From an uncultured Alistipes sp. (GTDB taxonomy: Bacteria; Bacteroidota; Bacteroidia; Bacteroidales; Rikenellaceae), in the NCBI GenBank assembly GCA_900539755.1, contig UQDC01000006.1:45177-109176 (forward strand): 64,000 nucleotides of DNA, in the 5' to 3' direction. How positions within the stretch are numbered: the stretch's first letter is position 1; every line of letters begins with the position of its first letter. The notes below the pieces were generated by a model. It was given only the letters and a program-made list of their open reading frames with translations, was not told where the DNA came from and ran no database searches. The position numbers were made by a program, and so were the translations under genes. Below are positions 15,382 to 58,890 of the stretch, in pieces.

Positions 15382-15466
15382 TCGAGTTGATGATCTTCAG
15401 TTTTTCATGAACAAATAACATAACTCAAACAAAAGAAACAAGTTAAACCAATTAATACTTACGATT

Positions 15467-16780
15467 ATGAAACGATTATTGGTATTGGCTTCTATTGCCA
15501 CAATGGGCGTAAGCGGTACTGCATTTGGCCAGTCTGGTGTGAATGAAGCTAACCTGATGCAGAAAGTCAGCAAAGCCGAAGCCGCTACTCAGGATCCGAA
15601 AAAGAATACCAAAGCAGCAACTTGGATTACTTTGGGTGATGCCAATTATAATGCTACGATTGCTCCTATTGCCTCACTGTATAGAGGTCTGAGTGAACTC
15701 GAAATGATGTTTATGATGGGCAAGAATGAGCAATCTACGGATACAATTAATGGTGTTCAGATGAATGTCGCATCTTATGATTATGTTGATGTTTATCTGA
15801 CTAATGGTGTGGTTTCTTTCTGGAAAACGAAAAAAGCAATCAACCCTAATGGCTTGGAGAAAGCTGAAGCAGCTTATATGAAAGCCTATGAATTAGATAA
15901 GGATAATGCTGCCACTTTGAAAAAGGTTCAGCAGGGCTTGACTAATGTTTATAACTGGTATAAACAGATTGCCGACAATAATTTCACCCAACAGAATTTG
16001 CCAGTAGCTGCATCTGAATTTGCTAAGGCATATGATTTGTTGCAGGAAGGTGTGATTACCGCTGCTGATACAACCAGCTCATTTAATGCAGGTTTGATTT
16101 ATGCAATCCTGAAAGATTATCCTAACGGAGAGAAATATCTGTCAGCAGCGTTGAAAGATGGTTTGGCTAAAGGTGGTGATACCTATTACTATCTGAATCT
16201 TTGCTATGCCGGTGAAGGTAAAAATGCTGAGGCTAAACAGGTGTTGATGGATGGTATTAAAGCCTATCCAATGAATTCAAAACTGGTAGAGGGTCTGCTC
16301 TCAGTTTATGCAGCAACCGGTGAAGATCCTAATGAGATTATTCCATTGGTAAATGAGGCTATCCAGAATGATCCGAAGAACCCTGAACTGTATGCAGGTT
16401 TAGGTCGTGTATATGACAAATTGGGACAACCTGACAAATCAATCGAAGCGTTCAAACAGGCTTTGGCGTTGGCTCCAGATGATTTCGCTACCAACTACAA
16501 TATCGGTTTGATGTTGATCAAACGTGGTGATGAAGCGAACAATGCATTGAATGACAAAATGTTCACTAGCACTGAATCTTTGAAAGCTGAAGAGGCTGCT
16601 GTTAACGCTATGTATGCAGAGGCTCTAGCTCCACTGGAAAAGGCTCATGAGTTGCAGCCGGATGATATCACGACGGTTGAACTGCTGAAAAACCTCTATT
16701 TCCGTTTCCGTGACGACAATGCACAGTATATGGAGAAATACAAACATTATAACGAATTGCTAGAGTCTATGCAGCAATAG
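15467..16780 (+). CDS. tetratricopeptide-repeat protein with signal peptide
   Basis: Signal peptide followed by multiple TPR-like helical repeats. It sits directly downstream of gyrA. Confidence 0.7.
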   Translation: MKRLLVLASIATMGVSGTAFGQSGVNEANLMQKVSKAEAATQDPKKNTKAATWITLGDANYNATIAPIASLYRGLSELEMMFMMGKNEQSTDTINGVQMNVASYDYVDVYLTNGVVSFWKTKKAINPNGLEKAEAAYMKAYELDKDNAATLKKVQQGLTNVYNWYKQIADNNFTQQNLPVAASEFAKAYDLLQEGVITAADTTSSFNAGLIYAILKDYPNGEKYLSAALKDGLAKGGDTYYYLNLCYAGEGKNAEAKQVLMDGIKAYPMNSKLVEGLLSVYAATGEDPNEIIPLVNEAIQNDPKNPELYAGLGRVYDKLGQPDKSIEAFKQALALAPDDFATNYNIGLMLIKRGDEANNALNDKMFTSTESLKAEEAAVNAMYAEALAPLEKAHELQPDDITTVELLKNLYFRFRDDNAQYMEKYKHYNELLESMQQ

Positions 16781-16801
16781 TTTGATGGAAAATAGATAAT
16801 A

Positions 16802-16834
16802 AAAAGAGCGTCAGAAATGGCGCTCTTTTTTATT
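16802..16834 (+). terminator. rho-independent terminator after the TPR gene
   Basis: Stem aaaagagcg/cgctctttt followed by a T-run. Confidence 0.65.
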
Positions 16835-16956
16835 TTGGACAAAATTTTGCAGGAAAGCAGGAGATGGATTATTTTTGTGATTTGTATAATTGGATGGAAA
16901 AGGCTTTGCAAAATAGTGCGCATGTTAGGCGTTGATTTGCAGCTTGATAGATAATC

Positions 16957-18408
16957 ATGATGGAAGAACAGGATAATAAAATATTATCGGAACTGACCGG
17001 TTCTGAATATAAATATGGGTTTACGACCGATGTCGAGACCGAAATCATCCCCAAAGGGCTGAATGAAGAGGTCGTACGACTCATCTCGGCGAAAAAAGGT
17101 GAGCCGGAGTGGATGTTGGCTTATCGTCTCGAGGCTTATCGCCGTTGGAAGACGATGACAATGCCTCGTTGGCCTCATTTGGATCTGCCGGAGATCGATT
17201 TCGATGACATCATCTATTATGCGGCACCAAAGGCTAAACCAAAATTGAATAGCCTCGATGAAATTGACCCCAAACTGAAAGAGACATTTGATAAATTGGG
17301 CGTTCCTCTGGAGGAGCAGATGATGTTGTCAGGCGTTGCAGTCGATGCCGTGATGGACTCCGTGTCGGTCAAAACAACTTTCAAGGAGACCCTTTCCGAA
17401 AAGGGAATCATCTTCTGTTCCATGTCGGAGGCAATCCGGGATTATCCCGATCTGGTCCGTAAATATTTGGGCAGTGTGGTCCCCAGTACCGATAACTTCT
17501 TTGCGGCTTTGAATGCAGCGGTCTTTTCGGATGGCTCGTTCTGCTATATTCCCAAAGGGGTGCACTGTCCGATGGAACTCTCGACCTATTTCCGAATCAA
17601 TGCAGCCGGAACAGGACAGTTCGAACGGACGTTGATTGTGGCCGATGAGGGGGCCTATGTCAGCTATATGGAGGGATGTACCGCTCCGATGCGTGATGAA
17701 AATCAGTTGCATGCTGCCGTAGTCGAAATTGTCGTGATGAAGGATGCCGAGGTCAAGTATTCGACCGTTCAGAACTGGTATCCCGGTGACAAAGAGGGAC
17801 GTGGCGGTATTTACAACTTTGTGACCAAACGGGGAATTTGCAAGGGCGAAAATGCCCGGTTGTCGTGGACGCAGATCGAAACCGGTTCAGCCCTGACCTG
17901 GAAATATCCGAGCTGTATTCTGGCCGGAGATAATTCGGTCGGAGAGTTCTATTCGGTGGCTGTGACCAATAACTGTCAGCAGGCCGATACCGGTACGAAG
18001 ATGATCCATTTGGGGCGCAACACCCGCAGTCGGATTGTCAGCAAAGGTATTTCGGCCGGACGTAGCCAGAATAGCTATCGGGGATTGGTCAAGGTGGCTC
18101 GCAAGGCCGAAAATGCCCGCAACTATTCGCAGTGCGACTCCCTGCTGATTGGGGATCGGTGCGGAGCTCATACCTTCCCCTATATTGAATCGAACAACCG
18201 TTCGGCTGTGGTTGAACATGAGGCAACCACCTCCAAAATCGGAGAAGATCAGCTCTTTTATTGCAACCAACGTGGCATCTCTACGGAGGATGCTGTGGGA
18301 CTGATTGTCAACGGTTATGCCAAAGAGGTGCTGAACAAGTTGCCTATGGAGTTTGCGGTTGAGGCGCAAAAATTACTCTCGATCTCGTTGGAGGGTAGTG
18401 TTGGTTAG
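16957..18408 (+). CDS. sufB: Fe-S cluster assembly protein SufB
   Basis: 483 aa with the characteristic SufB/SufD core. Confidence 0.95.
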
Positions 18409-26648: not shown

Positions 26649-28778
26649 TTATAATTGAACCTCCAGAGGTGTGGTCGCTGTGTAGCTCTTACCACGGAAT
26701 TTGCCAGTGGCTCCCTCAGGAACGGTTACACGCAACAGGTTGTTTTCCATCGAAACATTAATGTCGCCGTATTGGGTCGGGATGGTGGCTTTCAATGGCT
26801 GCATCGACAGAGGAACCTGTGGATCGATCTCAAATACTTTCCACCCGTCACTGATCGGACGAATGCCCAATAACTCAGACGGAATCAATGCTGCGGGTCC
26901 ACTACTCCAGGCATGGCAGAGACTCTTGCCGAAGGGACGACGATAGAAACTGTACTGTTGTACCTCGTCCTCCCGTACATCGTAGCCTTCCCAGAAACTG
27001 GTCGCTCCCTGGGCAATCATTCCTCCCCAGTAATCCTTCATCTCATGCAACATCCGTTCCGGAGCACGCATGCGGGAGAGAGCCATGTATTCGAAACCAG
27101 CCATATAGGGCGTGCCGACTGCTGTGATCGTTGTGTCTGCTAACGCCTCGAGGATGCCGGGATATTGAGACGGTGCTGCAAGACCTGAAATGACCGCCAG
27201 GAAGTTGGCATGACGGTTGGGTTGGCTCTGACCATCGGGTTTGCCACGCCATGCCTTCCGAACCGGGTCATAGCCACGCTCGTAAAGCACTTTTTTCAGA
27301 CTGTCGGCCTTCTTTTGCCAATAGGCGGCAGTTTGCGGATCGTTCATCCGTTCGGCCAAAGATACGGCACTCTCTTGTGCCCACCACCACAATACCTGAA
27401 GTGCATTCTCCTTTTCGATATTGGTCCAATCGATAAACAGCCAGTCGAGACCCTCGGTAAATAATCCGTTCTCATCGCAGCGGCTTTCAACCTCTTTGAG
27501 TACATTCTTGATGCGAGGCCATTCACGTTGCAAGTGCTCCATGTCCCCGAAATAGAGTTGGTAGCGATCTTGCGAAATGACCCACCACAACGAATAGTCG
27601 GCAATGCCGTTCACATCCTCTTCTGCAATACCGGCCCGGCCCAAAATAGCCAGTGTGCGGCGGACAATCTCAGGATCCCGGAATGTATAGGCGTTGACCA
27701 TCATACTCATGGCCAGGTCTCCGGCCCAAGGCAGACGATCTCGTTTTACACCGTCAAGCAAAAATTCGTGCATACACAGACGCAGTGTATAGGCACTCTT
27801 GAACCAAATGTCGGTCAGCAGGGTGTCGTTGGATTGGAAATCTCCACGATAGCAAGCCGGATAAGCATAAGCATCGCACTCAACTGACTGAATCAACTCT
27901 TTTTGCGGAAGGTAGGCATACCGGAAAGCTACCGGGGTAACCGAACGCCAAACACCCTCTCCAACCTGTTCCAAATCGAAACTCTGTTCTCTGGGGCGTG
28001 CTGCTGTATCTACAGCCTCAAGAATTGACTCGCCTGCGAAAAAGTCGGGTTGACTGTTGGCTTTTACCACAATGAAGCCGAACAGTTGACGACCGAAATC
28101 ATACAGAGTGTCATTTTGTGTGCTGACGGGTTTCAGTCGTACGGTTGGTGTGTCGTAACGGTGGGGAAGGGTACCGTCCTTATATTGGGGATAATGGCAC
28201 GCAGCAGCCCACGTAATGCTGTCCGAAGAGGCTTCCCACCGTGTATTGTCGGTTGAGATAACCCCTTTGTCGATGCGCAGCGTCGGAGGCTCCTGCTCGG
28301 TCGTCAGGGTGATCAACAGGGATCCTGGTCCGGTTACTTTGAATTTATGAGGCTTCTCGCTATTTGCTGCGGTGTAGATGGTCTGTCCGTTGTTTTTGAT
28401 TACTACATCACCGAAAGCGTTGAGTGTAATGAATTGCGGATAACGTGCATCTACCGGCATGGGAACTCGGAAATGTGTCCGATTGCTGGGTGTGTAATAT
28501 ACACCCGGATAGCGGACTCGCAAACGGGCATCCTTAACCAGTTGACGCATCAGCTGCAATCTCCAGGCCTCCAGCTCGGTGTCGGCGTAGAGCCATGGAG
28601 CACCCTGCACGGTGTCAGGTGTCGGAGTGACAGCAGTTCGTGAATAGAGTGGATCAACGGCAGATGCCGGATGTTTGTCTGAGCGTTTGTCGTTGTTGGC
28701 GGCCTGAACGGAAGAGAGGGAGAGGGTCCCCAGTACCATAGCTGTTGCCCATGTGGCCAATCGGGTTCGGGTTGTCAT
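26649..28778 (-). CDS. alpha-L-rhamnosidase-like (GH78-family) glycoside hydrolase, secreted
   Basis: 709 aa with a signal peptide. The C-terminal part resembles the GH78 six-hairpin (alpha/alpha)6 catalytic domain (GDLAMS...WW...FWEGY). Confidence 0.55.
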   Translation of the reverse strand: MTTRTRLATWATAMVLGTLSLSSVQAANNDKRSDKHPASAVDPLYSRTAVTPTPDTVQGAPWLYADTELEAWRLQLMRQLVKDARLRVRYPGVYYTPSNRTHFRVPMPVDARYPQFITLNAFGDVVIKNNGQTIYTAANSEKPHKFKVTGPGSLLITLTTEQEPPTLRIDKGVISTDNTRWEASSDSITWAAACHYPQYKDGTLPHRYDTPTVRLKPVSTQNDTLYDFGRQLFGFIVVKANSQPDFFAGESILEAVDTAARPREQSFDLEQVGEGVWRSVTPVAFRYAYLPQKELIQSVECDAYAYPACYRGDFQSNDTLLTDIWFKSAYTLRLCMHEFLLDGVKRDRLPWAGDLAMSMMVNAYTFRDPEIVRRTLAILGRAGIAEEDVNGIADYSLWWVISQDRYQLYFGDMEHLQREWPRIKNVLKEVESRCDENGLFTEGLDWLFIDWTNIEKENALQVLWWWAQESAVSLAERMNDPQTAAYWQKKADSLKKVLYERGYDPVRKAWRGKPDGQSQPNRHANFLAVISGLAAPSQYPGILEALADTTITAVGTPYMAGFEYMALSRMRAPERMLHEMKDYWGGMIAQGATSFWEGYDVREDEVQQYSFYRRPFGKSLCHAWSSGPAALIPSELLGIRPISDGWKVFEIDPQVPLSMQPLKATIPTQYGDINVSMENNLLRVTVPEGATGKFRGKSYTATTPLEVQL

Positions 28779-29550
28779 GTCAAATCGCTTTAGGATTCAG
28801 TTGAAAAGATCTTAAAATATTACTGGCTTTCATGCGGTGTAATCCACATCCATGGATTATCCCATAAAACCCCAACAAATTTACATTTTTTCCTTCGTAA
28901 ACCAAATGTTTTCGGGATCTGTGATGCCATGCGTCGTACGCTTCTGTGGAATATAGGGCAGGGTGAACGGCGTGGGATCGTAAAGAGTGGTCAGAAGTAC
29001 GGGTGGGGCACAAGAACGGAGGTAAATAGAAAAAGGAATTGGAATTGTGTTGGGTATTGGGCTGGGAATCAGAAAAGAGTAGTGCCCTCCAAAAAATGCA
29101 CAAAAGCGATGTTGATAAACGAAGCGTTCTTTGGCTGAAATGCAGTTGTGAAAAAGCCAATCGCTGGCCGACTGTAAAATAGTTTGTTATAGGTGTTCTG
29201 CTTGCAAGTAGCAATCGGTCGTCTTCCAAAAATACATTTCTCGAAAATACATTGGGTGTGATCAGAGTAAAAGCCCTGATGGGTGAAAATTCTGACCGAT
29301 ATTATGGCAGTAGTCTCTTCATCTCAATATTTCAAGATGAGGGAAATGAAAATTGAATCAAGAGTTTCGGTTATGGCTTTCCCGATGTTGTCTGCAATAT
29401 GGAATCTTGTTGGAGGCAAGCAGGATTCAAGCGCAAAGAGTATATGTTTTCGTACGTTCTGCTGAAAAAGATCGCAGTCAAGGCCGTCAACAGAAGGTGA
29501 TATTCAAATTATCCGGATGGGGAAGAGAAACTCCTCCCCGGACAGTCCGA

Positions 29551-31617
29551 TTAGTCGTTGGTGTCGGCTTTACGACTGCTCTTTTTCCAGTTCGGGGTGA
29601 TACTGATGAAAAAGCCATAGTTGCGGCCCGGCATGGGGCGTGAAAGAACCGATACATACTTCTCATTGAACAGATTGTAGATCGAAAACTTCAAGGACAA
29701 CTCTCCAACCCTCTCCGATACGAAGGTCTTCTCTAACGAAACGTCATTCATGTAGTATGGGGTCAGTACGCCCAATTTGCCGCCATCATTGCTCGATGTG
29801 GTATAGCGCTCGCTGTAGTGGTTGTATTTGTAGATCAGTGTAAACCGTTTCCAGGTTAAGCGCCCGGTGATCGAAGAGGAGTATTCGGGAATGTACACAA
29901 GTTGTTTGCCGACCGATTGGTCTGCCCAACTTTTCGGCTCATCCTGGTTGATGGAACGGGTTTTGGACCAGTTGCCATCCAGTCGGATGCCCCATTCCCG
30001 ACCCAAATCGACACTAACCCGACCTCGCAACTCAAACCCGTAGCTGTGAACCTGTTTGACATTGCTCGGAGTCCAATAACCTTTGGCGGTGGGCAGCCAG
30101 AGAATCCAATCCTTGATTTTCGAATTGTAAACCGTAGCCTCACCCCGTACGGAAAAACGACCGATGTCCCATCCCGCTTCAATACCTCCGTCATACGTGA
30201 AACCCCGTTCACAATTCAACGAATCATTACCTCCCGGCAGAAAATAGAGGTCATTCAGCGAAGGGTAACGGAAGTTACGGGCGATAGATCCCTTTACTAC
30301 CAGCCCGGCCTTTGGCCACAGGATGTATTCGGCAAAAAATGCAGGGATGATCGGTGTGAATTTGCGGCCATAACTCTCTTCCCGCAGATCGAGAGCCAGA
30401 CTGAGTCTCGGTACGGGACGGTATTTGGCCGTCGCAAAAATCGACGCCTCAACACGTTGTTTGTCGTATCCGGTTTTATCGTATTTGTCGTAACTGTTGA
30501 CTGCGTTGAGGTTGACATTGGCGTTGGCCCTGAATATCCACTTGTCGGAAAGGTACCAGTCGGCAGAAAATTGCGCATACCCGGTATGAACCCGACTCAA
30601 AGAGTGGATCATCTCAACCAACTCATCGGTGCCGTTCTCGCCTTTGTAGGTGTACAGCATATTCGAATAGCTATACCCCGCTTTGGCCGACAGACTCCAT
30701 TGTTCACTGTAACGATCCCAACTTCCTACCAGTCGAATGGTGGTTTCATCCTGTTCATTTTTCGATTCGTCCTCCTCCCGGTAGTTGACATTGAGCATCG
30801 GGACCCCTCGTTTCGAGTCCAGGAACCACCCGGTAAACCCAAAACGGTTGTTGTTTTGTCCCTTCCAATAAAACTCTTGTAACAGATGCAGATCTCGGTA
30901 CGAACCGTTTTTGTTGTGCTCGATCGGATAGCTGCCGTCGTCGTTGCGTTTGTTGAAGTTGACGTAGGGAAAGTCGTTTTTGGCGTTGGCGTAGTAAAAA
31001 CGGGTCGATGATTGGAACTTCTCATTGCCATACTGCACCCGCAGGAATTCATCGTAGGTGCTGAAACTGCTGATTCCCTGGATGAAATTGAGCTTTACAC
31101 CATCCAATCCCGGTGTATATTTCGTGTCGAGAGCAACGGCTCCACCGAGTCCTCCTCCCACAACTCCGACCGAACTTGCCCCATGATACAAGCTTCCTTT
31201 GTCAATGAAAAAGGAGGGGATCATCGAAAAGTCAACCATGCCGAGGGTCGGAGAGTTCAACTTCATGCCGTTCCAAAGAACCTGGGTGTGGGAAGGGGCC
31301 GTGCCTCGAAACGAAGCTGTGGCCAGGGAGCCTCGCCCGTATGATTTGATAAAGATCGGCGTATTTTGAGCCAATACGTCGGCAATGCTGTTGACCACTG
31401 TCTCCCGCAGGGTGAGGGTGTCAAGTGTGGTCATGGTTGTCCCGACATTCGACAGGGGACGACGTGCGGTGACGGGAACCTCCTGCAACTCCACGAGGCG
31501 TTCATACTGCTCTTGACTGGAGGTCTCTTTCTTTTTGTCCCCTTGTTCCTGGCCCCAGAGCGGTAATGCACTCGATAGGATTGAAAGAGTAATAAATGAT
31601 CGTATGATGTGTCTCAT
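29551..31617 (-). CDS. btuB: TonB-dependent outer-membrane receptor, BtuB-like (cobalamin/corrinoid uptake)
   Basis: Signal peptide, plug domain (TLRETV...SFRG...VLWNGMKLNSP), a 22-strand barrel of BtuB-class size (688 aa) and a C-terminal aromatic residue. It lies downstream of the B12 riboswitch and the BtuG-like gene. Confidence 0.7.
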   Translation of the reverse strand: MRHIIRSFITLSILSSALPLWGQEQGDKKKETSSQEQYERLVELQEVPVTARRPLSNVGTTMTTLDTLTLRETVVNSIADVLAQNTPIFIKSYGRGSLATASFRGTAPSHTQVLWNGMKLNSPTLGMVDFSMIPSFFIDKGSLYHGASSVGVVGGGLGGAVALDTKYTPGLDGVKLNFIQGISSFSTYDEFLRVQYGNEKFQSSTRFYYANAKNDFPYVNFNKRNDDGSYPIEHNKNGSYRDLHLLQEFYWKGQNNNRFGFTGWFLDSKRGVPMLNVNYREEDESKNEQDETTIRLVGSWDRYSEQWSLSAKAGYSYSNMLYTYKGENGTDELVEMIHSLSRVHTGYAQFSADWYLSDKWIFRANANVNLNAVNSYDKYDKTGYDKQRVEASIFATAKYRPVPRLSLALDLREESYGRKFTPIIPAFFAEYILWPKAGLVVKGSIARNFRYPSLNDLYFLPGGNDSLNCERGFTYDGGIEAGWDIGRFSVRGEATVYNSKIKDWILWLPTAKGYWTPSNVKQVHSYGFELRGRVSVDLGREWGIRLDGNWSKTRSINQDEPKSWADQSVGKQLVYIPEYSSSITGRLTWKRFTLIYKYNHYSERYTTSSNDGGKLGVLTPYYMNDVSLEKTFVSERVGELSLKFSIYNLFNEKYVSVLSRPMPGRNYGFFISITPNWKKSSRKADTND

Positions 31618-31830
31618 GATGGAGTTGGAGATTTGCGGATTGTGAATGATCGTGATGGATGGCAGGTGTTATCTTGGTTTTGTGTCGCAGCATTTTGGAA
31701 AGTGCCGGGCGGTATCTGATGATAGTTGATTCATCATAAACCGTTTTGATCGAATCTGTTTAGTGTATTATGTCGATGTAGCCGGAAGAAATGCTGAAGT
31801 GATGTAGTGGTGTCCCGTTGAAGAAAATCG

Positions 31831-31867
31831 TGTTGTGTTGTGTTGTGTTGTGTTGTGTTGTGTTGTG
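31831..31867. repeat. pentanucleotide microsatellite (TGTTG)7 in the btuG-like/btuB-like intergenic region
   Basis: Perfect run tgttgtgttgtgttgtgttgtgttgtgttgtgttgtg. Confidence 0.9.
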
Positions 31868-31928
31868 CGAAAGACTGTTTTGGGGAATCGCCTCTTAGAC
31901 TATTGTTTGACCTTTTGTCCTGTGGTGA

Positions 31929-33071
31929 CTACTCCACAAAACAGAAGGAGCCGGGCGTAATACCTACCCGTATCGTGTCCAGTGGAGCAGCCTGCGGAGA
32001 GAGCCTATAAACCACCCCATACTGAACGTAGTCGATCGCATCGGCCACGTAAACTTCAGAGGTTTTGGGATCTATCGCCAGTCCATAATAGAGCGTGCCG
32101 GTATATTTCAAGAAAGGCTTTTGGGGCAGTTGCTCATCTGTTACCTTCATGCACCAAACATCTTTATTAAGAAAGTAGAGAGAGTCCCGACTGCCGTTGA
32201 GGCAGATTTCCGAAGGGGCATCCTCCATCGGGAAAGTGAGCTGCAATTCAATGTTGCGACTCTCGGCATCGATGCGGCTGAGGGTGGGCTGTTCTTGTCC
32301 GTAAGGGCTGCCTTCGTAACCGCCATCGGTCAGTACCCACAACTTGTTGTTGCAGTCTAACGCTATGGAATTGGGTTGAATGCCTACGGTGATCGAATCG
32401 ACCACTTTGTCCTGATCGGAGTCGATGACCAAAAGCTTGTCATCGTATGACCAACAGTTCGTAAAAATCAGATTTTTGTATTGAACCATCTGCTCGGTTG
32501 GATGTTGACGGTCGATGCCGTTCGAGACGTCGATCCGGCCTGTGATTTGGCAGGTCGAGGGATCAACGATTGTGATGGCACGGGCATAGAGATCGGTAAC
32601 GTAGGCCTTCGTGTCGCTCAAAATATGCATGTAACGTGGAGAGGTGAGGCCTCGAATGGTGCCGGTTATTTTGGCCGTGTGACGATCGATGGCGAAAATA
32701 ACGCCGGAATTGTTGACAACTATATAAACGGTATTGCCGTATGAGGTGACCGATTGTGCAACATCTCCCAATGGAATTCCGTTGGCACTGAGGAAGATGT
32801 CGTTGTCTCCGTCCTGGTCGGTAATCAACTGGCTGTTGGTGATGTCGTAGTAGCACAGTGAGGCATTCCCGTAGGTGAAATTGCCTTCGTTGGAGATAAA
32901 CAATCCCCGGCCGGGCAACGTCATATCGATCGGCTCGATCGGGCCGTACTCCATACATCCCACAGCGCATAATGCCGTGATTAACACCAGCACGGTGTGT
33001 GGAAAACGGTGGCGAAGCCCCAAAAGATGGCAGAACCAATATGTGAAAACGGATGAAAAAGAGCGGATCAT
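31929..33071 (-). CDS. btuG: BtuG-like surface lipoprotein with a YVTN-type beta-propeller
   Basis: Translation from the ATG at 33071 gives MIRSFSSVFTYWFCHLLGLRHRFPHTVLVLITALCAVGCMEYGP, a lipoprotein signal. YVTN-like blades follow (AYVTDLYARAITIVD, LWVLTDGG, EVYVADAIDYV). The six-frame ORF track extends to 33350 and runs into the riboswitch. Confidence 0.6.
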   Translation of the reverse strand: MIRSFSSVFTYWFCHLLGLRHRFPHTVLVLITALCAVGCMEYGPIEPIDMTLPGRGLFISNEGNFTYGNASLCYYDITNSQLITDQDGDNDIFLSANGIPLGDVAQSVTSYGNTVYIVVNNSGVIFAIDRHTAKITGTIRGLTSPRYMHILSDTKAYVTDLYARAITIVDPSTCQITGRIDVSNGIDRQHPTEQMVQYKNLIFTNCWSYDDKLLVIDSDQDKVVDSITVGIQPNSIALDCNNKLWVLTDGGYEGSPYGQEQPTLSRIDAESRNIELQLTFPMEDAPSEICLNGSRDSLYFLNKDVWCMKVTDEQLPQKPFLKYTGTLYYGLAIDPKTSEVYVADAIDYVQYGVVYRLSPQAAPLDTIRVGITPGSFCFVE

Positions 33072-33237
33072 ACGGTTCGGTTTCGTTTGCAAGTGTTGGA
33101 CAAAAAGCCCTTTTGAACGTGCAGCGACGTTTCGGGAACCAATACGAAACAACCGACCGATGATGCCGGTGTGTTGCCAACCCATTTCGCCGCAGGTTGT
33201 CGGGCAATCGTGCAAAGGCAGGTCTTCTGACTTGTCC

Positions 33238-33400
33238 CAACTCTCCACGCCTTCCCGTCCGGCTATCGAACAGTGGCCAATGAGGAGAGTGTCGTCTCTG
33301 GGTGAGACGGGATTCACAGCAGCGGGAACTGTTGCCGATTTACACAGCATTCCCTTTTAATCCCCTGATAAACCTCTTTTTCGGGGGAACCGTTGCGTGA
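33238..33400 (-). promoter_or_regulatory. cobalamin (B12) riboswitch
   Basis: The minus-strand RNA carries, in canonical order, AAAAGGGAA, GCTGCTGTGAATCCCG, the B12 box GGCCACTG and CGGGAAGGC. It lies about 170 nt upstream of the btuG-like start. Confidence 0.8.
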
Positions 33401-33824
33401 CAAAAGTGCACTTTTTTTCAGACAAAACCAAATAAGCTCAAACTCTGGGGCCGATCTCAGTCGGGGAAGCAGAATTCGCAATTCCAAAATAGCGTATGAG
33501 AAGATCTGAGTCGGGCCCCTTGTTGTATTTTGTCTGTGAGAGACTGTTTGGTCCGACGCAATCCGTAATCTCAATCCAGTTCACATGAATAGTACTATCA
33601 TTACAATAGCGGGCAGCGTTTTTCGGAATCGAACGATTTGTCTGCAATATCCGGCTCCATGCATTATATATTAAAGTATTCTTCTTATCTTGCTTTGTCG
33701 TTTGAAAACAGAGTGACCGAAAAAGATAACTGAATTTCAATTTCGCGTTTCGAGTTTTTATCCCTATATTTGTTATTGGAATAACACCACTGCTTAACTA
33801 ACGACTAATAAACGCATTAGTATT

Positions 33825-35687
33825 ATGGCAAAGAAAATTTTAATTAGGGACTTGACCCTTCGTGACGGTCAACAATCCTCGTTCGCCACGCGTATGAATC
33901 AAAGTCAGGTTGATAGCGTCCTCCCCTTTTACAAAGAGGCAGGCTTCTACGCTATGGAAGTATGGGGTGGTGCGGTACCTGATTCGGTAATGCGCTATCT
34001 GGGCGAAAACCCTTGGGATCGTCTGGAAAAGATAAAAGCTGCGGTGGGTGATGTGTCCAAACTGACCGCTCTTTCACGGGGACGCAACCTCTTCGGATAC
34101 AGCCCCTATACGGATGAAATCATCGAAGGTTTCTGTCGCAATGCTATCGAGTCAGGACTCGGTATCATGCGTATCTTTGACGCCCTGAATGATGTAGATA
34201 ATGTGAAATCTACCATCAAATATGTGAAAAAATATGGCGGATTGGCCGATTGTGCCGTCTGCTATACGATCGACCCCCATTTCTCGGCAGGAGAACGTCT
34301 GGTCTCTCTGTTGAAGGGTAAAAAATTGCCCGGTAAGGTCTTTACTGATGCCTACTTCCTGAAAAAGGCTCAGGAAATGGAGGCCCTGGGAGCCGACATG
34401 GTCACCATCAAAGATATGAGCGGTCTGATCCCGCCCAAACGGGTCGCAACCTTGATCCGTCTGTTCAAACAGAATCTGAAGGTGCCCGTTGACTTCCATA
34501 CTCACTGTACTCCGGGTTATGGATTGGCTTCCGTGCTGTCGGCTATTGTGGCCGGTGCTGATATTGTCGATACCAATATCTGGTATTTCGCCGGTGGCCC
34601 CGCTGCTCCAGCTATCGAATTGATCTATCTCTTCTGCAAGAAACTGGGCATCGAACTGGATGTCAATATGGAGGCTGTGGCCAAAATCAATGTCGAACTG
34701 CTCCGAATCCGCAAAGAGTTGGAACAGTACGATGCCGTCAAACAGTTCCCCAATCCGTTCAATCCATTGACCGATACCCTCCCGGCAGAAATTGACAAGG
34801 AGTTTGACCGTGCCATTGCAGCTGCCAAGAGTATGAATGAAGCCGAACTGATCGAGGCTTGTCATGCCATCGAACGTTACTTCAACTTCCCGGCTCCGAA
34901 CGAATTGGTTAAAAAGGCCGAAATCCCGGGCGGTATGTACACCAATATGGTGGCACAGCTCAAACAGCTCAAGGCCGAAGATATTCTCGAAAAGGCAATG
35001 GAGCTGATTCCTCGCGTGCGTCTGGATGCCGGTCTGCCTCCGTTGGTGACGCCGACCAGTCAGATCGTAGGTGCTCAGGCGGTGAACTGTGCTCTCGATG
35101 CCCGTAACGGCAAGCCGATGTATTCGAATGTGTCGAATCAGTTTGTCGGTTTGGTGAAAGGGGAGTATGGCCATACCCCTGTGCCGGTAGATCCGGAGTT
35201 CCGTTTCAAAATTGCCGGGGTGCGTGAAGAGACGCCATACGATACCTCGAAAAATCAGATGCAGCCCAATCCGGTGCTGGAGGATTGCGGTGGCGTTAAG
35301 TTGGCCGAAAACGAGAAAGAGGTGCTGTTGCTTGAGCTCTTCCCGTTGGTAGCCAAAAAGTTCCTGACCGATCAGAAAAAACAGCGTTACGAACAGAATA
35401 AACCGGTTGAAGAGGAGGTAAAGGCTCCTGTCGAAAAAGAGGAGGCCCCACGTGCTGCCGCTGAACCGATTACGGGAACTGTAGTCAGTGCTCCGATGCC
35501 GGGCCGGATTATTCAGGTGATGGTCAAACCGGGTGACGTGGTTAAATCGGGACAGGATGTGGTGATTCTGGAGGCGATGAAGATGGAGAACAGTATCATG
35601 GCCAACAAAGCGGGTACCATCAAACAGGTACTGGTTTCCGAAGGTGAGGCTGTGGCTGCTGATGCTCCGTTGGTGGAGATTGTTTAA
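33825..35687 (+). CDS. biotin-dependent carboxyltransferase with a C-terminal biotinyl domain (oxaloacetate decarboxylase alpha / pyruvate carboxylase subunit B family)
   Basis: N-terminal HMGL-like TIM barrel (LRDGQQS, FHTHCTPGYG) and a C-terminal biotinyl-lysine motif EAMKMEN. Confidence 0.85.
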   Translation: MAKKILIRDLTLRDGQQSSFATRMNQSQVDSVLPFYKEAGFYAMEVWGGAVPDSVMRYLGENPWDRLEKIKAAVGDVSKLTALSRGRNLFGYSPYTDEIIEGFCRNAIESGLGIMRIFDALNDVDNVKSTIKYVKKYGGLADCAVCYTIDPHFSAGERLVSLLKGKKLPGKVFTDAYFLKKAQEMEALGADMVTIKDMSGLIPPKRVATLIRLFKQNLKVPVDFHTHCTPGYGLASVLSAIVAGADIVDTNIWYFAGGPAAPAIELIYLFCKKLGIELDVNMEAVAKINVELLRIRKELEQYDAVKQFPNPFNPLTDTLPAEIDKEFDRAIAAAKSMNEAELIEACHAIERYFNFPAPNELVKKAEIPGGMYTNMVAQLKQLKAEDILEKAMELIPRVRLDAGLPPLVTPTSQIVGAQAVNCALDARNGKPMYSNVSNQFVGLVKGEYGHTPVPVDPEFRFKIAGVREETPYDTSKNQMQPNPVLEDCGGVKLAENEKEVLLLELFPLVAKKFLTDQKKQRYEQNKPVEEEVKAPVEKEEAPRAAAEPITGTVVSAPMPGRIIQVMVKPGDVVKSGQDVVILEAMKMENSIMANKAGTIKQVLVSEGEAVAADAPLVEIV

Positions 35688-35888
35688 TTGCTGATCGAAT
35701 CGCTTGAAAGAGTGGGTGAGTGAATGGAGCTGTCGGTCCGGCGATCCTTGCGACCTTGCGACTTTGCAGTCTTTGCAGCCCCCTCACTTCCTACAGTATC
35801 TACATTTGATTATACTATATCAGTTTGGTTTTTGAATAACAGAGGCTGCGATGCATATAAGGTAGCCATTGAAATAGTGTGATGATCT

Positions 35889-35935
35889 TCAGAGAAAGAG
35901 TATTTGTTGAAAATACTCTTTCTCTTTTTTTGTTT
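35889..35935 (+). terminator. rho-independent terminator after the oadA-like gene
   Basis: Long hairpin agagaaagagtatttgttgaaaatactctttctct followed by a T-run. Confidence 0.8.
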
Positions 35936-35996
35936 GGAGTGATTATAAGACTCGTATGCAGTGGCCGAAACAAAATCTCTGGTCGAGTGCTATGGA

Positions 35997-36061
35997 TTTG
36001 AATGAGTCGAATGAGTCGAATGAGTTGGAATGGGTTGGAAGGGTTGGAAGGGTTGGAAGGA
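35997..36061. repeat. tandem 9-mers (GAATGAGTC)x~3 followed by (GGGTTGGAA)x~4
   Basis: Sequence reads gaatgagtcgaatgagtcgaatgagttggaatgggttggaagggttggaagggttggaagg. Confidence 0.85.
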
Positions 36062-36539
36062 GTGAAGTGGATTGAATAGAATAGGTGAGGGATACGTAGA
36101 TGAGGATTGTGGATTTGTTATCCTGTAATTTAAGGTAATCCGACAGAATCCCTTTTGAGAGGGAGGAAAAAGTGAGCGGAGCAATTCGGAATGGATTTGA
36201 TTCGGGATGGTAGAGTGGGGCTATGCGAGTGGTGGAGCGAATTGCATAGTGAAGGATGAGGGAGTGCATCAATATTATTATAGTGTATTAGGCGGTATAT
36301 AATAGCAGTGCATTATATAAATTAGGGAGGATATATATAATAGTAAGGTTGGATTGGCCTATTATAATTGGGGTGCGGTGCATATAACGGGGTAACGCTA
36401 TAACGGATCTGTACATGCAGAGACAAATCTATCGCTACTCCGATTGAACAATGCGTATCTGTATGCTGTGAAAACGTTAGGTTAGCGGTTTTTCGGCAGG
36501 TCTTTTGTCGGTCCGGTGGGGTAAAGGTCTGCTACACGA

Positions 36540-37060
36540 TTTGTTGCATGATTTGCCGTGTGATTTGCTGTGTGATTTGCGATATAAGGTGTTCTATGGT
36601 TTACTCTGTGAACGCCTGCACGATGCTGTGTGAGTGCGTACATGATTTATTTTGTGTGGGAGGCAGCACACCATGTTGTGTGAGTATGTTGCATGAATTT
36701 GCTTTGCGAGTCGCAGCATGAATTGGTGTGTCAGTGTACCGCATGGTTTATGTTGTGTGTGTCAGCAGGCCGTGCTGAATGAGTGTGTTGCATGATTTGC
36801 TTTGCGAGTCGTAGCATGAATTGGTGTGTCAGTGTACCGCATGGTTTATGTTGTGTGAGTGGCAGCACACCATGTTGTGTGAGTATGGTGCATGAATTTG
36901 CTTTGCGAGTCGCAGCATGAATTGGTGTGTGAGTGCGCCGCATGATTTACTTTGCGAGTCGCAGTCCGGATTGCTGTGTGGAAACACTGCATAATTATTT
37001 ATAGTGTGAGTCGCCGCATGAAAGATCGTAGGTATTGTATGAATGGCCGTATATGCTGCA
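36540..37060. repeat. degenerate ~100-bp tandem repeat array (3 full copies plus partial copies) upstream of nuoA
   Basis: The unit ttgcatgaatttgctttgcgagtcgcagcatgaattggtgtgtcagtgtaccgcatggtttatgttgtgtg recurs at about 36689, 36788 and 36888. Each copy carries the palindrome TGCGAgTCGCA flanked by GCATGAATT direct repeats. More degraded copies flank the array. Confidence 0.8.
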
Positions 37061-37184
37061 TGAATTCTTGCAAGACACACCTCCCTACATCACTCTTTAT
37101 CTAAAACGATCAGGGTAAATCCGGCGTTTCGGTTTCCAGTTTTCATTTGCACCCATCTCCGTGAAAAACAGTGACAATAAAAAG

Positions 37185-37226
37185 CCTTTTTTGTTGGTTG
37201 TTCCGCGAATATTTCGCTATATTTGC
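37185..37226 (+). promoter_or_regulatory. candidate Bacteroidota-type promoter of the nuo operon (-33 TTTG, -7 TATATTTG)
   Basis: TATATTTG matches the TAnnTTTG -7 consensus, with TTTG about 20 nt upstream and about 90 nt before the nuoA ATG. Confidence 0.45.
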
Positions 37227-37316
37227 GCCGCGTATCGTGTCTGCTGGCCAGAGCCCTGGATCAGAAGACGCAATTTTCGTTTTCACTTTTTGATTACCAA
37301 TAAGATACCATAACTT

Positions 37317-47258: not shown

Positions 47259-47387
47259 GTATTAGTTGCAGATCGCTCGGATGATGGCGGCGACCCTGTC
47301 GGCAATAGATGTCAATAGTTGTCAATTCATGCCGCCCTTTCCGGTAGGTGGTAGTGTGGCTATTGATGCTGTGCAACTATCAATGTG

Positions 47388-47478
47388 ATGCGGCTACGGA
47401 TGTCGTGTGGCTGTGGATGTCGTGTGGCTGTGGATGTCGTGTGGCTGTGGATGACATGTGGCTGTGGATGCCATGCGG
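47388..47478. repeat. 17-nt tandem minisatellite (GTGGCTGTGGATGTCGT)x~6 abutting the tpx stop codon
   Basis: Three perfect copies and three degenerate copies. The array ends 1 nt before the tpx stop. Confidence 0.9.
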
Positions 47479-47988
47479 CTATTCCAATGCGCTGACCACT
47501 TTCAGGGCCGCTTCGTAATCGGGTTCGTGTGAAACCTCTGAGACATATTCAATGTGGCGAATGGTGCCCTCCCGATCAATCACAACAACTCCACGGGCCA
47601 ACAGTCGCAACTCCTTGATCACAAATCCGTATTTTAATCCGAAATCAAGATCCCGGTAGTCCGAATATACATGCACATTCTCAATGTGCTCGGCTGCGCA
47701 AAAACGACTCTGTGCAAACGGTAAATCAACCGACAGGGAAAGAATCTCCACATCGCTTTTCAAACGGCTGGCCTCTTTGTTGAACCGGATATTCTGCAGA
47801 GCGCATACCGGTGTGTCAACCGATGGAAATACACTGATGATGATATTCTTGCCTGCGTACTGTGAAAGGGATACGGGCTGTAAATTGTTGTCCAGAACAC
47901 TGAACGATGGTGCTTTGTCTCCTACATGAAGCGGATCCCCTACCAAAGTGATCGGGTTGCCCAAAAATGTAATCTGTGTTTTGTCCAT
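47479..47988 (-). CDS. tpx: thiol peroxidase (atypical 2-Cys peroxiredoxin)
   Basis: SVDTPVC peroxidatic Cys motif, 169 aa. Confidence 0.92.
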   Translation of the reverse strand: MDKTQITFLGNPITLVGDPLHVGDKAPSFSVLDNNLQPVSLSQYAGKNIIISVFPSVDTPVCALQNIRFNKEASRLKSDVEILSLSVDLPFAQSRFCAAEHIENVHVYSDYRDLDFGLKYGFVIKELRLLARGVVVIDREGTIRHIEYVSEVSHEPDYEAALKVVSALE

Positions 47989-50490: not shown

Positions 50491-51020
50491 GTGAACTGCC
50501 TCAACAAATGAATCGACCAACAAGGGTAGCATTCCGGCAAAGAGAGTTGTTCCTGTAAAGTGAATCGCTCCAGCTAAGTGAATTGTTTCAACAATATGAG
50601 CCGCTGCAATAAGCGAACTACCCCAATAATGGGGAGTATCCCAGCAAGGGGAGTCGTTTCCATAAAGTGAGCTGCGCCAGTCAAGTGAATTGCCTCAATA
50701 AGGTGAGTCTCGCCAGCCAAGTGTATTGCCTCGACAACGTGAACTGCCGCAATAAGCGAGCCATTTCCAGCAATGGGGCGTTCCTGTAAAGTGAACTTTG
50801 CTAGTCAAGAGGATCGTCTCAACAACGAGAGCCGCCGCAATAAGCGAACTACCCCAATAATGGGGAGTATCCCAGCAAGGGGAGCGTTCCCGTAAAGTGA
50901 TCCTCGCCAGTCAAGAGGATCGTCTCAATAAGGTGAGTCTCGCCAGCCACGTGTATCGCCTCGATAACGGGAGCCGCCGCAACACTGAAACTGTGAACGG
51001 AAACAACCGCACCACAGACC
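50491..51020. repeat. degenerate 18-nt-period tandem array (~29 units) containing a 231-bp internal duplication
   Basis: Units such as gtgaatcgctccagctaa, gtgaattgcctcaataag and gtgagtctcgccagccaa recur. An exact 54-nt block (gccgcYgcaataagcgaactaccccaataatggggagtatcccagcaaggggag) occurs at 50600 and 50831. The minus strand shows hexapeptide periodicity interrupted by stops. Confidence 0.8.
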
Positions 51021-51589: not shown

Positions 51590-51810
51590 ATGCAAGTAAC
51601 AGGTGCGCATGTAATATGCGTGCGGGTGTGCGGAAATGTGCAAGAGGTGACGTGTGCGAACGTGCAGGTGTTGTGTGCAGGAACGTGCATATAGCGTGTG
51701 TGGGACGTGCTTGTGGCATGTGTGGGCTGTGTATGTGGCAGGTGTGAGGTTGCATACGGTGTGCGTGTGATATGCACATTGTGCGGTATGCATTTGAGTG
51801 GTTAGACACA
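51590..51810. repeat. GT-rich low-complexity block (GTGCG/GTGTG reiterations)
   Basis: About 220 nt dominated by gtgcg, gtgtg, gcatgt and gcaggtg words. It produces spurious His/Thr-rich antisense ORFs. Confidence 0.75.
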
Positions 51811-57857: not shown

Positions 57858-57990
57858 GGATGTGCAAGGTGTGAACCTTGGACGGGAAAACAGATCGGGT
57901 TGCAAGGCCTGGACCTCGGGGTGAAAACAGATCAGGTTGCAAGGTTTGAACCCCGGGCGAAAAAAAGTCGAGTTGCAAGACCTGAACAAT
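57858..57990. repeat. four ~36-bp direct repeats between copA and copZ-like gene, each with a GTTGCAAGGnnTGAACC dyad
   Basis: gggaaaacagatcgggttgcaaggcctggacctcgg, ggtgaaaacagatcaggttgcaaggtttgaaccccggg and cgaaaaaaagtcgagttgcaagacctgaacaa, plus the half-copy gtgcaaggtgtgaacc. Confidence 0.8.
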
Positions 57991-58805: not shown

Positions 58806-58890
58806 CGGTCAGCATGCTCCCCAGCGTGGCATGTTCCTCAGCGTGGCATGTTCCCCAGCGTGGCATGCTCCCCAATGTGGTATCTTCCTC
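58806..58890. repeat. 17-nt tandem minisatellite (AGCGTGGCATGTTCCCC)x~5
   Basis: Sequence reads cagcatgctccccagcgtggcatgttcctcagcgtggcatgttccccagcgtggcatgctccccaatgtggtatcttcctc. Confidence 0.9.

Follow-up and report, generated by a model that had tools for sequence, protein, structure and literature searches.

A probable cobalamin-riboswitch-controlled btuG-btuB operon for outer-membrane corrinoid capture in an uncultured Alistipes-like gut bacterium

The stretch of DNA investigated in this study (64,000 nucleotides, hereafter the window) very likely contains a two-gene operon of an uncultured Alistipes-like (Rikenellaceae) bacterium of the human gut, which is controlled by a cobalamin riboswitch and serves the capture of corrinoids at the outer membrane. 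The system is of an already known and well-understood kind, a BtuG and BtuB pair placed under a B12-sensing RNA, and in gut Bacteroidetes 106 of 109 btuB operons have been described to contain a btuG homologue (PMC6143338). The original prediction is borne out in nearly all respects. Our analysis identifies the RNA and both proteins and establishes the fold, the conservation of anchor, pocket and the loop EL8, and the layout of the operon together with its conservation; nothing was found that contradicts the identification of riboswitch, btuG and btuB.

The regulatory element is defined by a match to RF00174 on the minus strand (33409..33200), which covers model positions 1-189 of 189 with a score of 104.1 bits (E 5.6e-25, gathering score 31.5 bits) and is the only Rfam match in the 64-kb window. 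This strongly positive covariance-model scan, which had been proposed together with the original prediction, confirms the cobalamin riboswitch that had been read on this strand and whose motif strings (AAAAGGGAA, GCTGCTGTGAATCC, GGCCACTG and CGGGAAGGC) are all readable in the sequence, with GCCACUG as B12 box. Its location had been correctly placed at about 33400-33238, but the 3' end is found at 33200, about 38 nt further 3', and the distance to the ATG of btuG at 33071 thus amounts to 128 nt instead of the anticipated ~170 nt. Equivalent aptamers are found directly 5' of btuG in eight related loci (L004, L009, L010, L013, L014, L023, L025 and L028).

Promoters of Bacteroidetes contain a -7 box with the consensus TAnnTTTG. 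A putative box of this type, CTTATTTG, precedes the aptamer by about 20 nt (33429..33436, minus strand), and its counterpart in the loci L004 and L034, TATATTTG, matches the consensus perfectly. A block ATTTG..TTTT..TC is kept in this region across five related leaders. Transcription probably starts about 15-25 nt 5' of the aptamer. On the 3' side of the aptamer, folding predicts a P13-like hairpin (CAACCUG / CGGCGAAA / UGGGUUG, 33178..33199, minus strand, -6.5 kcal/mol), in which ACAACCTGCGGYGAWATGGGTTGGCAA is fully conserved among five leaders from loci with a BtuG identity to the window of only 69-83%; the motif CCUGCGG recurs 3' of the aptamer in L009, L010, L013, L023 and L025. The CUGCGG of this hairpin is complementary to the loop L5 (CCGC) and is presumed to be its partner in a putative kissing-loop interaction. 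A consensus scan has also identified a terminator-like hairpin (GGCAAC..ACCGG-CAUCA-UCGGU..GGUUGU, followed by UUUCGUAUU; 33142..33178, minus strand), whose folding energy of -10.4 kcal/mol is not significant relative to shuffled sequences (z-score -1.2) and whose function is uncertain. It is near-identical in L004 and L034 and unrecognisable in L036 and L038, and since it is not kept in relatives of 69-71% identity and the expression platform folds no better than shuffled controls, the mode of repression is uncertain.

The first gene of the operon, btuG (31929..33071, minus strand), encodes a protein of 380 residues that was predicted to be a YVTN beta-propeller with a lipoprotein start. Both features are reflected in its matches to DUF5074 (65.7 bits, cutoff 27.2) and to the YVTN repeat TIGR02276 (31.3 bits, cutoff 27.85) and in a lipobox (AVG-C) whose lipid-anchor Cys39 aligns with the lipidated Cys32 of BtuG2 (PMC10404256). 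The acidic lipoprotein export signal following Cys39 (CMEYGPIEPID) is weak, which we have counted against our main reading. Its resemblance to BtuG, as originally proposed, is evident in sequence and predicted fold: end-to-end alignments relate the protein to the solved structures of BtuG3 (8p97_B, E 1.6e-115) and BtuG2 (8bmx_D, E 1.3e-113), and in a Foldseek comparison of the kind suggested at the outset, an AF2 model of high confidence (pLDDT 91) finds its best PDB neighbours in BT1954 and BT2095 of B. thetaiotaomicron, on which it superposes with target-normalised TM scores of 0.93-0.97 and an rmsd of 1.3-2.3 Å. Of the five corrinoid-pocket residues named for BtuG2, four (W194, Y239, Y316 and Y335; PMC10404256) are kept as W207, Y252, Y329 and Y348, the first two of which are invariant and the latter two nearly invariant among 44 homologues, whereas the fifth position (W272 in BtuG2) is occupied by A285, with an alanine also found in BtuG3. 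The mature protein carries a net charge of -20, compared to -18 in BtuG2. Collectively, these features describe a seven-bladed propeller that would act as a corrinoid-capturing lid.

The second gene, btuB (29551..31617, minus strand), encodes the TonB-dependent receptor of 688 residues that had been recognised as BtuB-like, and which is indeed a close homologue of the solved transporters BtuB2 (8bmx_C, E 8.5e-199) and BtuB3 (8p98_A, E 2.2e-188). It contains a Plug domain (Pfam, 44.6 bits) and aligns without gaps in the EL8 region (DWILWLPTAKGYWTPSNVKQVH), with a tryptophan at the position of Tyr538 of BtuB3. Its score against TIGR01779, the NCBIfam equivalog of the E. coli-type BtuB, is 57.5 bits and thus far below the cutoff of 599.7, which assigns it to the Bacteroidetes type and not to the orthologues of the enterobacterial protein. 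Directly 3' of the btuB stop codon, a stable stem-loop (29504..29550, minus strand, -22.6 kcal/mol, z-score -2.57, with 4 of 200 shuffled sequences folding as well) likely marks the end of the operon; the next gene, at a distance of 770 nt, encodes an unrelated GH78-like alpha-L-rhamnosidase family protein (26649-28778).

The succession of riboswitch, btuG and btuB is kept in L004, L009, L010, L013, L014, L023 and L025, five of which (L004, L009, L010, L014 and L025) are Alistipes/Rikenellaceae loci, while the contig of L028 ends after riboswitch and btuG. Wherever both genes are seen, btuG precedes btuB in 10 of 10 Rikenellaceae/Alistipes loci and in the single Prevotellaceae locus, and the same order is found in three further Bacteroidales loci; the opposite order occurs in Odoribacter, Marinilabiliales, Prolixibacteraceae and Cytophagales. 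The propeller-first arrangement with the riboswitch 5' of the propeller gene was thus correctly described, but it is the standard in Alistipes/Rikenellaceae relatives and not a departure. The locus L004 (uncultured Alistipes sp. UMGS763; L009 is Ca. Alistipes merdigallinarum) is syntenic with the window in its upstream region (an oadA-like gene and the nuo operon), with identities of 83% for BtuG and 92% for BtuB. Most of the Alistipes/Rikenellaceae relatives differ from the window by a second, convergent riboswitch-controlled pair downstream of btuB, which encodes a PKD+DUF5074 and an LRR/Big_2 protein, and by a spacer of about 70-140 nt, and the closer relatives L036 and L038 contain a gene for a PKD lipoprotein after btuG. 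As stated in the original prediction, no btuCDF genes are adjacent: neither FecCD nor Peripla_BP_2 proteins were detected by Pfam among 35 ORFs of the 64-kb window, where SufC is the only ABC ATPase. Of the 30 non-nested ORFs with 180 or more residues, 29 belong to this set, with the over-extended ORF 31929-33350 scanned from the start at 33071; the others are five nested ORFs (187-258 residues) and one ORF of 149 residues. The absence is a normal and known situation, since in B. thetaiotaomicron BtuFCD is encoded only at operons 2 and 4 but not at 1 and 3 and serves all BtuB paralogues, without being dedicated to any of them (PMC13616437).

The closest known systems are BtuB2-BtuG2 (BT1953/BT1954; PDB 8BMX, 8BMY, 3DSM) and BtuB3-BtuG3 (BT2094/BT2095; PDB 8P97, 8P98, 8OKV) of B. 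thetaiotaomicron, in which a DUF5074 seven-bladed propeller lipoprotein and a 22-strand TonB-dependent transporter likewise adjoin behind a cobalamin riboswitch. The window protein is 51-53% identical to BtuG2 and BtuG3 over its full length and shares the lipid-anchor cysteine, the pocket Trp/Tyr residues and the acidic surface, and the systems have the EL8 loop in common; the alanine at the W272 position renders it BtuG3-like. In contrast to the systems of B. thetaiotaomicron, the operon is minimal, lacking the accessory lipoproteins BtuH, BtuJ and BtuK as well as btuFCD, its two genes are separated by 311 nt that include a polymorphic (CAACA)n repeat, and its host belongs to a different family (Rikenellaceae). 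The btuB gene of E. coli likewise specifies a TonB-dependent B12 transporter of the outer membrane and is repressed through an RF00174 riboswitch in its leader, although there the riboswitch precedes btuB instead of btuG, the transporter has no lipoprotein lid and the protein is only distantly related. Transporters of the SusCD type share the 'pedal-bin' architecture of a surface lipoprotein capping a TonB-dependent barrel, but their lid is a TPR-rich SusD instead of a beta-propeller and their substrate a glycan instead of a vitamin.

By analogy to B. thetaiotaomicron, from which corrinoid binding, pedal-bin transfer, surface exposure and B12 repression are carried over, plentiful intracellular (adenosyl)cobalamin would bind the aptamer and lock the P13-like hairpin via the L5-L13 kissing loop, turning the downstream genes off either by premature termination at the hairpin and U-tract (33178..33142) or by a block of translation initiation. 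A repression of locus 2 mRNA by B12 of about 70-fold has been described (PMC6143338). Upon scarcity of B12, btuG and btuB would be co-expressed, and BtuG, lipidated at Cys39, would be exposed at the cell surface and cover the BtuB barrel like a lid, where the acidic central pocket of its propeller would capture corrinoids with very high affinity. Closure of the lid would permit EL8 of BtuB to dislodge the ligand into the barrel, from which a TonB-energised movement of the plug would release it to the periplasm, and uptake would be completed by an ABC importer of the BtuFCD type, with its genes at another site of the genome. For a substrate other than cobalamin itself it can be argued that BtuG2 accepts CNCbl, AdoCbl as well as cobinamide and leaves the lower ligand exposed (PMC10404256), that different cobamide preferences are conferred by BtuB1 and BtuB3 of B. 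thetaiotaomicron (PMC13616437) and that the W272 position is an alanine as in BtuG3. It is conceivable, if on balance doubtful, that the pair imports another corrinoid such as a particular cobamide analogue or cobinamide; this would refine and not replace our main explanation, the sequence does not discriminate between ligands, and the aptamer is a standard RF00174.

Co-transcription of both genes is supported by the lack of a terminator-like site or TTTG box between btuG and btuB and by the strong stem-loop after btuB. The A/C-rich spacer between them (31618..31928, minus strand) contains no Rfam match, plausible ORF, TTTG promoter box or terminator-like site. With 311 nt it is unusually long and leaves room for a separate control of btuB. 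It spans 343 nt in L004, and the called genes of L034 and L035 lie 341 nt apart, whereas seven of the eight other relatives with btuG before btuB have a spacer of only about 20-140 nt, the exception being L023 with about 1 kb. The spacer harbours a perfect (CAACA)7 pentanucleotide microsatellite (31830..31867, minus strand; TRF score 76, 100% matches; 0.01 matches expected by chance), whose seven copies compare to 3, 3, 4, 4, 4, 5, 6 and 6 copies in eight further contigs from gut metagenomes (96-99% identity where a 3.7-kb segment around the repeat was aligned), with the remaining spacer nearly invariant among strains. This variation, the spacer length and a sigma-70-like match at 31762..31733 could suggest that the riboswitch controls btuG only, while btuB is expressed from its own promoter inside the spacer, with the repeat tuning the activity of this promoter or of the leader and BtuB levels differing among strains. 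We consider this improbable, since the absence of TTTG precludes a Bacteroidetes -33 or -7 box, no terminator-like site is found 3' of btuG, the sigma-70 consensus is not of the Bacteroidetes promoter type and its seven matches do not exceed the 4.8 +/- 1.9 found in shuffled sequences, the repeat lies some 213 nt 5' of the btuB ATG and does not separate any recognisable promoter elements, and BtuB needs BtuG, with which it forms a stable 1:1 complex (PMC10404256). The microsatellite is the sole unexpected item at the locus.

A generic YncE- or surface-layer-like propeller unrelated to B12 uptake, next to a receptor for haem or siderophores, is very improbable. Such a reading could draw on the database names of relatives ('YncE family protein', 'surface layer protein' and 'glutamine cyclotransferase') and on the receptor's best NCBIfam match by E-value, a haemoglobin/transferrin receptor subfamily (62 bits, cutoff 324). 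However, these names are older than the work on BtuG, the matched PDB chains belong to BtuG2 and BtuG3, both of which have been characterised by experiment (PMC10404256), E. coli YncE is matched with an E-value of merely 0.014, and the operon follows a B12 riboswitch here and in eight related loci.

That the six-frame ORF 31929-33350 (473 residues), which is open from 33350 and whose start was chosen by gene callers on 15 contigs, would be the true gene with a coincidental RNA match in its coding sequence is hardly credible in light of the riboswitch E-value of 6e-25, several 1-nt indels relative to L004 in 33072..33350 that break the frame while the RNA structure elements persist, the ORF of L004, which cannot extend past the conserved ATG and begins there, the length of only 328-410 residues in the other 119 homologues listed, the normal signal peptide and lipobox cysteine counted from 33071, and the 93 extra residues, for which the only homologues are mis-called entries of this species itself. 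The 93 codons (33072..33350, minus strand) are a spurious extension of btuG that overlaps the aptamer and the expression platform, as was foreseen, and the anticipated mis-start by automated annotation is real: in a database lookup the product of 380 residues was absent from public records, where only the 473-residue version is found, heading a cluster of 378 member sequences.

The locus under study represents, in minimal form, the known BtuBG family that mediates riboswitch-controlled corrinoid uptake, which confirms the observation of the original prediction and supports its interpretation. With it, B12 capture by BtuBG is extended to a gut species that is uncultured and Alistipes-like, in which the system is stripped to a riboswitch, a lid and a barrel. 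Its scientific weight is small and its practical value is one of annotation. The proposed identity of the propeller encoded on the minus strand at 31929-33071 as a BtuG-like YVTN protein is borne out by domain models, by matches to proteins of known structure and by a predicted fold. The 380-residue product starting from the ATG at 33071 scores 65.7 bits against Pfam DUF5074 (PF16819, cutoff 27.2) and 31.3 bits against the YVTN repeat model TIGR02276 (cutoff 27.85), and among all PDB sequences it is matched end to end by 8P97 chain B (E 1.6e-115) and 8BMX chain D (E 1.3e-113), followed by 8BMY, 8OKV and 3DSM (E about 1e-111), whereas YncE of E. coli reaches an E of 0.014 only. The matched entries contain BtuG3 (BT2095) and BtuG2 (BT1954) of B. 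thetaiotaomicron, either by themselves or in complex with BtuB, with cyanocobalamin or adenosylcobalamin (PMC10404256). The protein was modelled with AlphaFold2 from 44 homologues (mean pLDDT 91.1), and the model has BT1954 and BT2095 as its best PDB neighbours, with target-normalised TM values of 0.93-0.97 and rmsd values of 1.3-2.3 Å, and the next unrelated propellers follow at a TM of about 0.6. The protein, which adjoins btuB in a riboswitch-controlled locus, is thus BtuG, a seven-bladed DUF5074 beta-propeller.

Since 8BMX chain D uses the UniProt numbering of PMC10404256, residue equivalences with BtuG2 can be read directly from the alignment. Cys39 of the protein (VGC39M), which is conserved in at least 90% of the 44 homologues, aligns with the lipidated Cys32 of BtuG2 (GSC32M), and BtuG is therefore predicted to carry a lipoprotein signal with an equivalent anchor cysteine, which is followed by a few acidic residues (CMEYGPIEPID). 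In the ligand pocket, W207, Y252, Y329 and Y348 align with W194, Y239, Y316 and Y335 of BtuG2, with Trp207 and Tyr252 invariant and Tyr329 and Tyr348 nearly so among the 44 homologues. The equivalent of Trp272 of BtuG2 is Ala285, and the same position is occupied by an alanine in BtuG3, which binds CNCbl (PMC10404256). Mature BtuG carries a net charge of -20, compared to -18 in BtuG2, where the charge was credited with attracting the ligand over long distances (PMC10404256). This charge and the acidic residues after Cys39 are indirect evidence only on the predicted surface exposure and sub-picomolar B12 binding of the protein.

The second protein of the pair, the 688-residue receptor encoded on the minus strand at 29551-31617, is BtuB-like as anticipated. 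Its residues 32-682 align with BtuB2 (8BMX chain C, E 8.5e-199), BtuB3 (8P98 chain A, E 2.2e-188) and BtuB1 (E 1.7e-18), and it contains an N-terminal Plug domain (44.6 bits) and a TonB-box-like EVPVTA sequence close to its N-terminus. The segment DWILWLPTAKGYWTPSNVKQVH of its extracellular loop EL8 aligns without gaps to DWIIWLPTSKGFYSPVNLKKVH and places a tryptophan at the position of Tyr538 of BtuB3, which is a phenylalanine in BtuB2 and a tryptophan in BtuB1, in a loop that is essential for the hand-over of B12 from BtuG3 to BtuB3 (PMC10404256). With 57.5 bits, the receptor falls below the cutoff of 599.7 of the enterobacterial BtuB equivalog TIGR01779. It is a B12 transporter of the Bacteroidetes lineage, outside of the narrow E. 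coli BtuB family, and it is predicted to work like BtuB even though it is no member of TIGR01779.

Expression of both genes appears to be governed by a cobalamin riboswitch on the same strand, which constitutes the sole Rfam match at the gathering threshold across all 64 kb of the window. RF00174 aligns over its full length (model positions 1-189 of 189) to 33409..33200 with a score of 104.1 bits (gathering score 31.5, E 5.6e-25), which is the outcome that the original prediction had anticipated for a covariance-model scan. The B12 box (GCCACUG) and the conserved junction motifs are present, with GGCCACUG, AAAAGGGAA and CGGGAAGGC aligning with the RF00174 consensus, and the four motif strings initially quoted can all be read in the sequence. 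The aptamer had been placed at about 33400-33238; its presence stands, whereas its 3' end is located at 33200, and the distance to the ATG at 33071 therefore amounts to 128 nt instead of about 170 nt. A search for a second RNA element in the spacer and 3' of btuB (Rfam at E <= 1, 28700-33800) returned this riboswitch alone.

The sequences flanking the aptamer were compared in five related leaders, including those of the window and of its closest genome, uncultured Alistipes sp. UMGS763 (L004). Upstream of the aptamer, a block of the pattern ATTTG..TTTT..TC is kept in all five, where the window reads CTTATTTG at 33436..33429 and L004 reads TATATTTG at the equivalent place. The latter fits the consensus of the Bacteroidetes -7 box, and we consider this element a putative promoter. 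Directly 3' of P1, a P13-like hairpin at 33199..33178 (minus strand) contains a CUGCGG sequence that is complementary to the CCGC of the L5 loop. The 27-nt segment containing this hairpin is invariant in the five leaders, whose BtuG proteins are 69-83% identical to that of the window, and a CCUGCGG motif occupies this position in five more distant leaders from Alistipes, Rikenellaceae and Prevotellaceae. By its complementarity, as distinct from covariation, the hairpin would be compatible with the L5-L13 kissing-loop platform of cobalamin riboswitches. It is followed by a predicted terminator-like hairpin with a U-rich tail at 33178..33142 (minus strand), which was detected in a consensus scan and is kept in the closest relatives only. 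Thermodynamic calculations on the expression platform gave z-scores of 0.03, 1.05 and -1.2, with no fold surpassing shuffled controls. As the platform folds no better than shuffles and the terminator-like hairpin is restricted to the nearest relatives, we prefer neither transcriptional nor translational control, and repression may proceed through attenuation or act on the initiation of translation. In B. thetaiotaomicron, the mRNA of locus 2 drops about 70-fold with B12 (PMC6143338), whereas repression is described as translational in a recent review (PMC13616437). A long-range alternative pairing of UGCGGCGA in the P13 region with the downstream UCGCUGCA is found in the minimum free energy folds of three of the five leaders (the window and the related loci L036 and L038), whereas in L004 and the related locus L034 GCGGC alone pairs, with a different downstream stretch. 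We do not claim this pairing, which is represented by three effective lineages with no compensatory change.

The main practical consequence of the locus concerns a correctable annotation error. The maximal open reading frame on the minus strand (31929-33350, 473 aa) runs through the aptamer, as had been recognized initially, and the resulting expectation that gene callers would mis-start btuG is met by the public record, where the 473-residue product is listed for 15 contigs from human-gut metagenomes and stands for a cluster of 378 member sequences. An exact-product look-up of the 380-residue form finds none on record, which is informative on the mis-start of the public gene call. Four arguments identify the 93-codon extension as non-coding. 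The stretch consists of the riboswitch and its expression platform; in the alignment with L004, the closest genome, whose BtuG is 83% identical, it contains several single-base indels while the RNA elements are nearly identical; the reading frame of L004 is open no further upstream than the conserved ATG, which is followed by ATCCGCTCT; and the 119 other listed homologues are 328-410 residues long, with the close ones sharing a signal peptide in front of the cysteine. In these close homologues the signal peptide ends in a cysteine directly before M(E/D)YGP. The sole public gene call thus conceals the RNA as well as the lipoprotein signal, and it would mislead predictions of signal peptides and localization. 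In the public cluster representative of 473 residues, the 93 N-terminal residues are a translated riboswitch. A different displacement is found in the related loci L034 and L035, where gene calls start 30 codons late (350 aa) and most of the signal peptide is lost.

The arrangement of the genes conforms to what is known from relatives. The nearest genome, L004, encodes a BtuG that is 83% and a BtuB that is 92% identical and shares the upstream synteny. The species of the window was not found among GTDB representative genomes, where the best match is 83% identical, and contigs with 96-100% identity across the locus are derived from human-gut metagenomes. Among 26 related genome loci showing both genes, btuG precedes btuB in all ten from Alistipes/Rikenellaceae and in one from Prevotellaceae, with the riboswitch located directly before btuG wherever upstream sequence is at hand. 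The opposite order is found in Odoribacter, Marinilabiliales, Prolixibacteraceae and Cytophagales, and in L005, L006 and L008, the three loci of this order that were scanned, the riboswitch is located several kb upstream, ahead of accessory genes. In three further Bacteroidales loci, btuG precedes btuB with DUF4465 or PKD accessory genes upstream and without btuFCD. In gut Bacteroidetes, homologues of btuG are contained in 106 of 109 btuB operons (PMC6143338).

The absence of btuCDF next to the locus had been noted and holds for the window, where Pfam searches of 35 open reading frames (29 of the 30 non-nested ones of at least 180 aa, the 31929-33350 frame scanned from 33071 and six others) found no FecCD or Peripla_BP_2 protein and SufC as the only ABC ATPase. 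The window thus does not contain a complete btuBFCD-type locus as found in E. coli and in operon 2 of B. thetaiotaomicron. In the latter organism, BtuFCD is encoded only at operons 2 and 4 and serves any BtuB (PMC13616437). With these precedents, neither the order of the two genes nor the lack of ABC genes departs from what is known.

Relatives differ in their accessory genes. In L009 (Ca. Alistipes merdigallinarum, 13131-17095) and in the loci L010, L013, L014, L025 and L029, a second cobalamin riboswitch is found in convergent orientation to btuGB, at a place where the window contains a GH78-like gene. In L009 it drives a 593-residue PKD+DUF5074 propeller protein and a 618-residue LRR/Big_2 protein, both of which are probably further accessory proteins that bind corrinoids at the surface. 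Two further riboswitches each are found in L013, where they are back-to-back on opposite strands, and in L025, where they form a convergent tandem.

Within the window, the operon is most likely bicistronic, because the spacer between btuG and btuB holds no terminator-like site and no TTTG box, a stem-loop (-22.6 kcal/mol, z-score -2.6) follows btuB, and the next gene, which is located 770 nt away, is an unrelated member of the GH78-like alpha-L-rhamnosidase family. The gap towards this gene (28779-29550) contains a sole open reading frame (28780-29229, 149 aa, TTG start) that has no Pfam match and looks non-coding, and a similar gap of about 670 nt is found in L034.

The one unexpected feature of the locus resides in the spacer, which spans 311 nt in the window and 343 nt in L004. 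Of the eight other relatives with the same order, seven have a spacer of about 20-140 nt and one, the related locus L023, has about 1 kb. In the window it contains a perfect (CAACA)7 microsatellite at 31830-31867 of the minus strand (TRF score 76, with 0.01 matches expected by chance), a tract that is absent from L004. A pattern scan of metagenome contigs yielded eight more from the same species and from the human gut, which are 96-99% identical over the aligned part of a 3.7-kb segment around the repeat; in these the copy number is 3, 3, 4, 4, 4, 5, 6 and 6, while the remainder of the spacer is almost invariant. The polymorphism rests on these eight independent contigs; two Logan contigs ending inside the repeat were rejected as a sign of heterogeneity, since k-mer assemblies break at a perfect repeat of 35 nt in any case. 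The spacer has no Rfam match, and its open reading frames of 22-63 residues, which are of low complexity or out of context, were dismissed as a small gene. In the syntenic loci L036 and L038, whose BtuG is 69-71% identical to that of the window, a 398-residue PKD/PKD_3 lipoprotein gene directly follows btuG (L036 7239-8435, L038 7234-8118) where the window contains the spacer. The spacer as a remnant of such a gene found no support, with a best E of 2.8 when this lipoprotein was compared by tblastn to the spacers of the window, L004 and L034.

The simplest reading of the variation in (CAACA)n is neutral replication slippage in non-coding RNA. It is very unlikely that the repeat would instead act as a slippage-driven tuner of BtuB relative to BtuG or as a switch between states of btuB expression, which would allow an outer-membrane transporter of this species to vary in a heritable and rapidly reversible manner. 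Transporters of the BtuB kind are typical receptors of phages and colicins in other bacteria; to our knowledge, there are hardly any reports of simple-repeat contingency loci from Bacteroidales, where invertible promoters are mostly used instead. The polymorphism offers a cheap strain marker and, at long odds, a possible expression-tuning element.

The surroundings of the locus are those of an ordinary chromosome, with genes for PPDK, gyrA, sufBCDS, an oxaloacetate-decarboxylase-alpha-like gene, the nuo operon, a mutY-like gene and a P-type ATPase. Divergent from the riboswitch, the plus strand encodes at 33825-35687 a biotin enzyme resembling oxaloacetate decarboxylase alpha or the methylmalonyl-CoA carboxyltransferase 5S subunit (459 bits against the domain model NF006761, PRK09282.1). 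Such enzymes function in the succinate-propionate pathway, in which the mutase step depends on B12. The adjacency of this gene to the riboswitch is kept in L004, L034, L036 and L038 and may be a coincidence. Between the same gene and nuoA, about 1.6 kb (35688-37316) hold no annotated-looking gene and are packed with tandem repeats, comprising 9-nt units at 36000-36060, a 12-nt unit at 36549-36580 and 3.1 copies of a 101-nt unit with 25/49-nt sub-periods at 36641-36964; in L004, the corresponding gap is about 800 nt long. Five more tandem arrays, at 47383-47480 (17 nt, 5.8 copies), 50662-50747 (36 nt, 2.4 copies), 51645-51746 (21/22 nt), 57886-57987 (37 nt, 2.8 copies) and 58812-58874 (17 nt, 3.7 copies), are mostly located in or near intergenic stretches.
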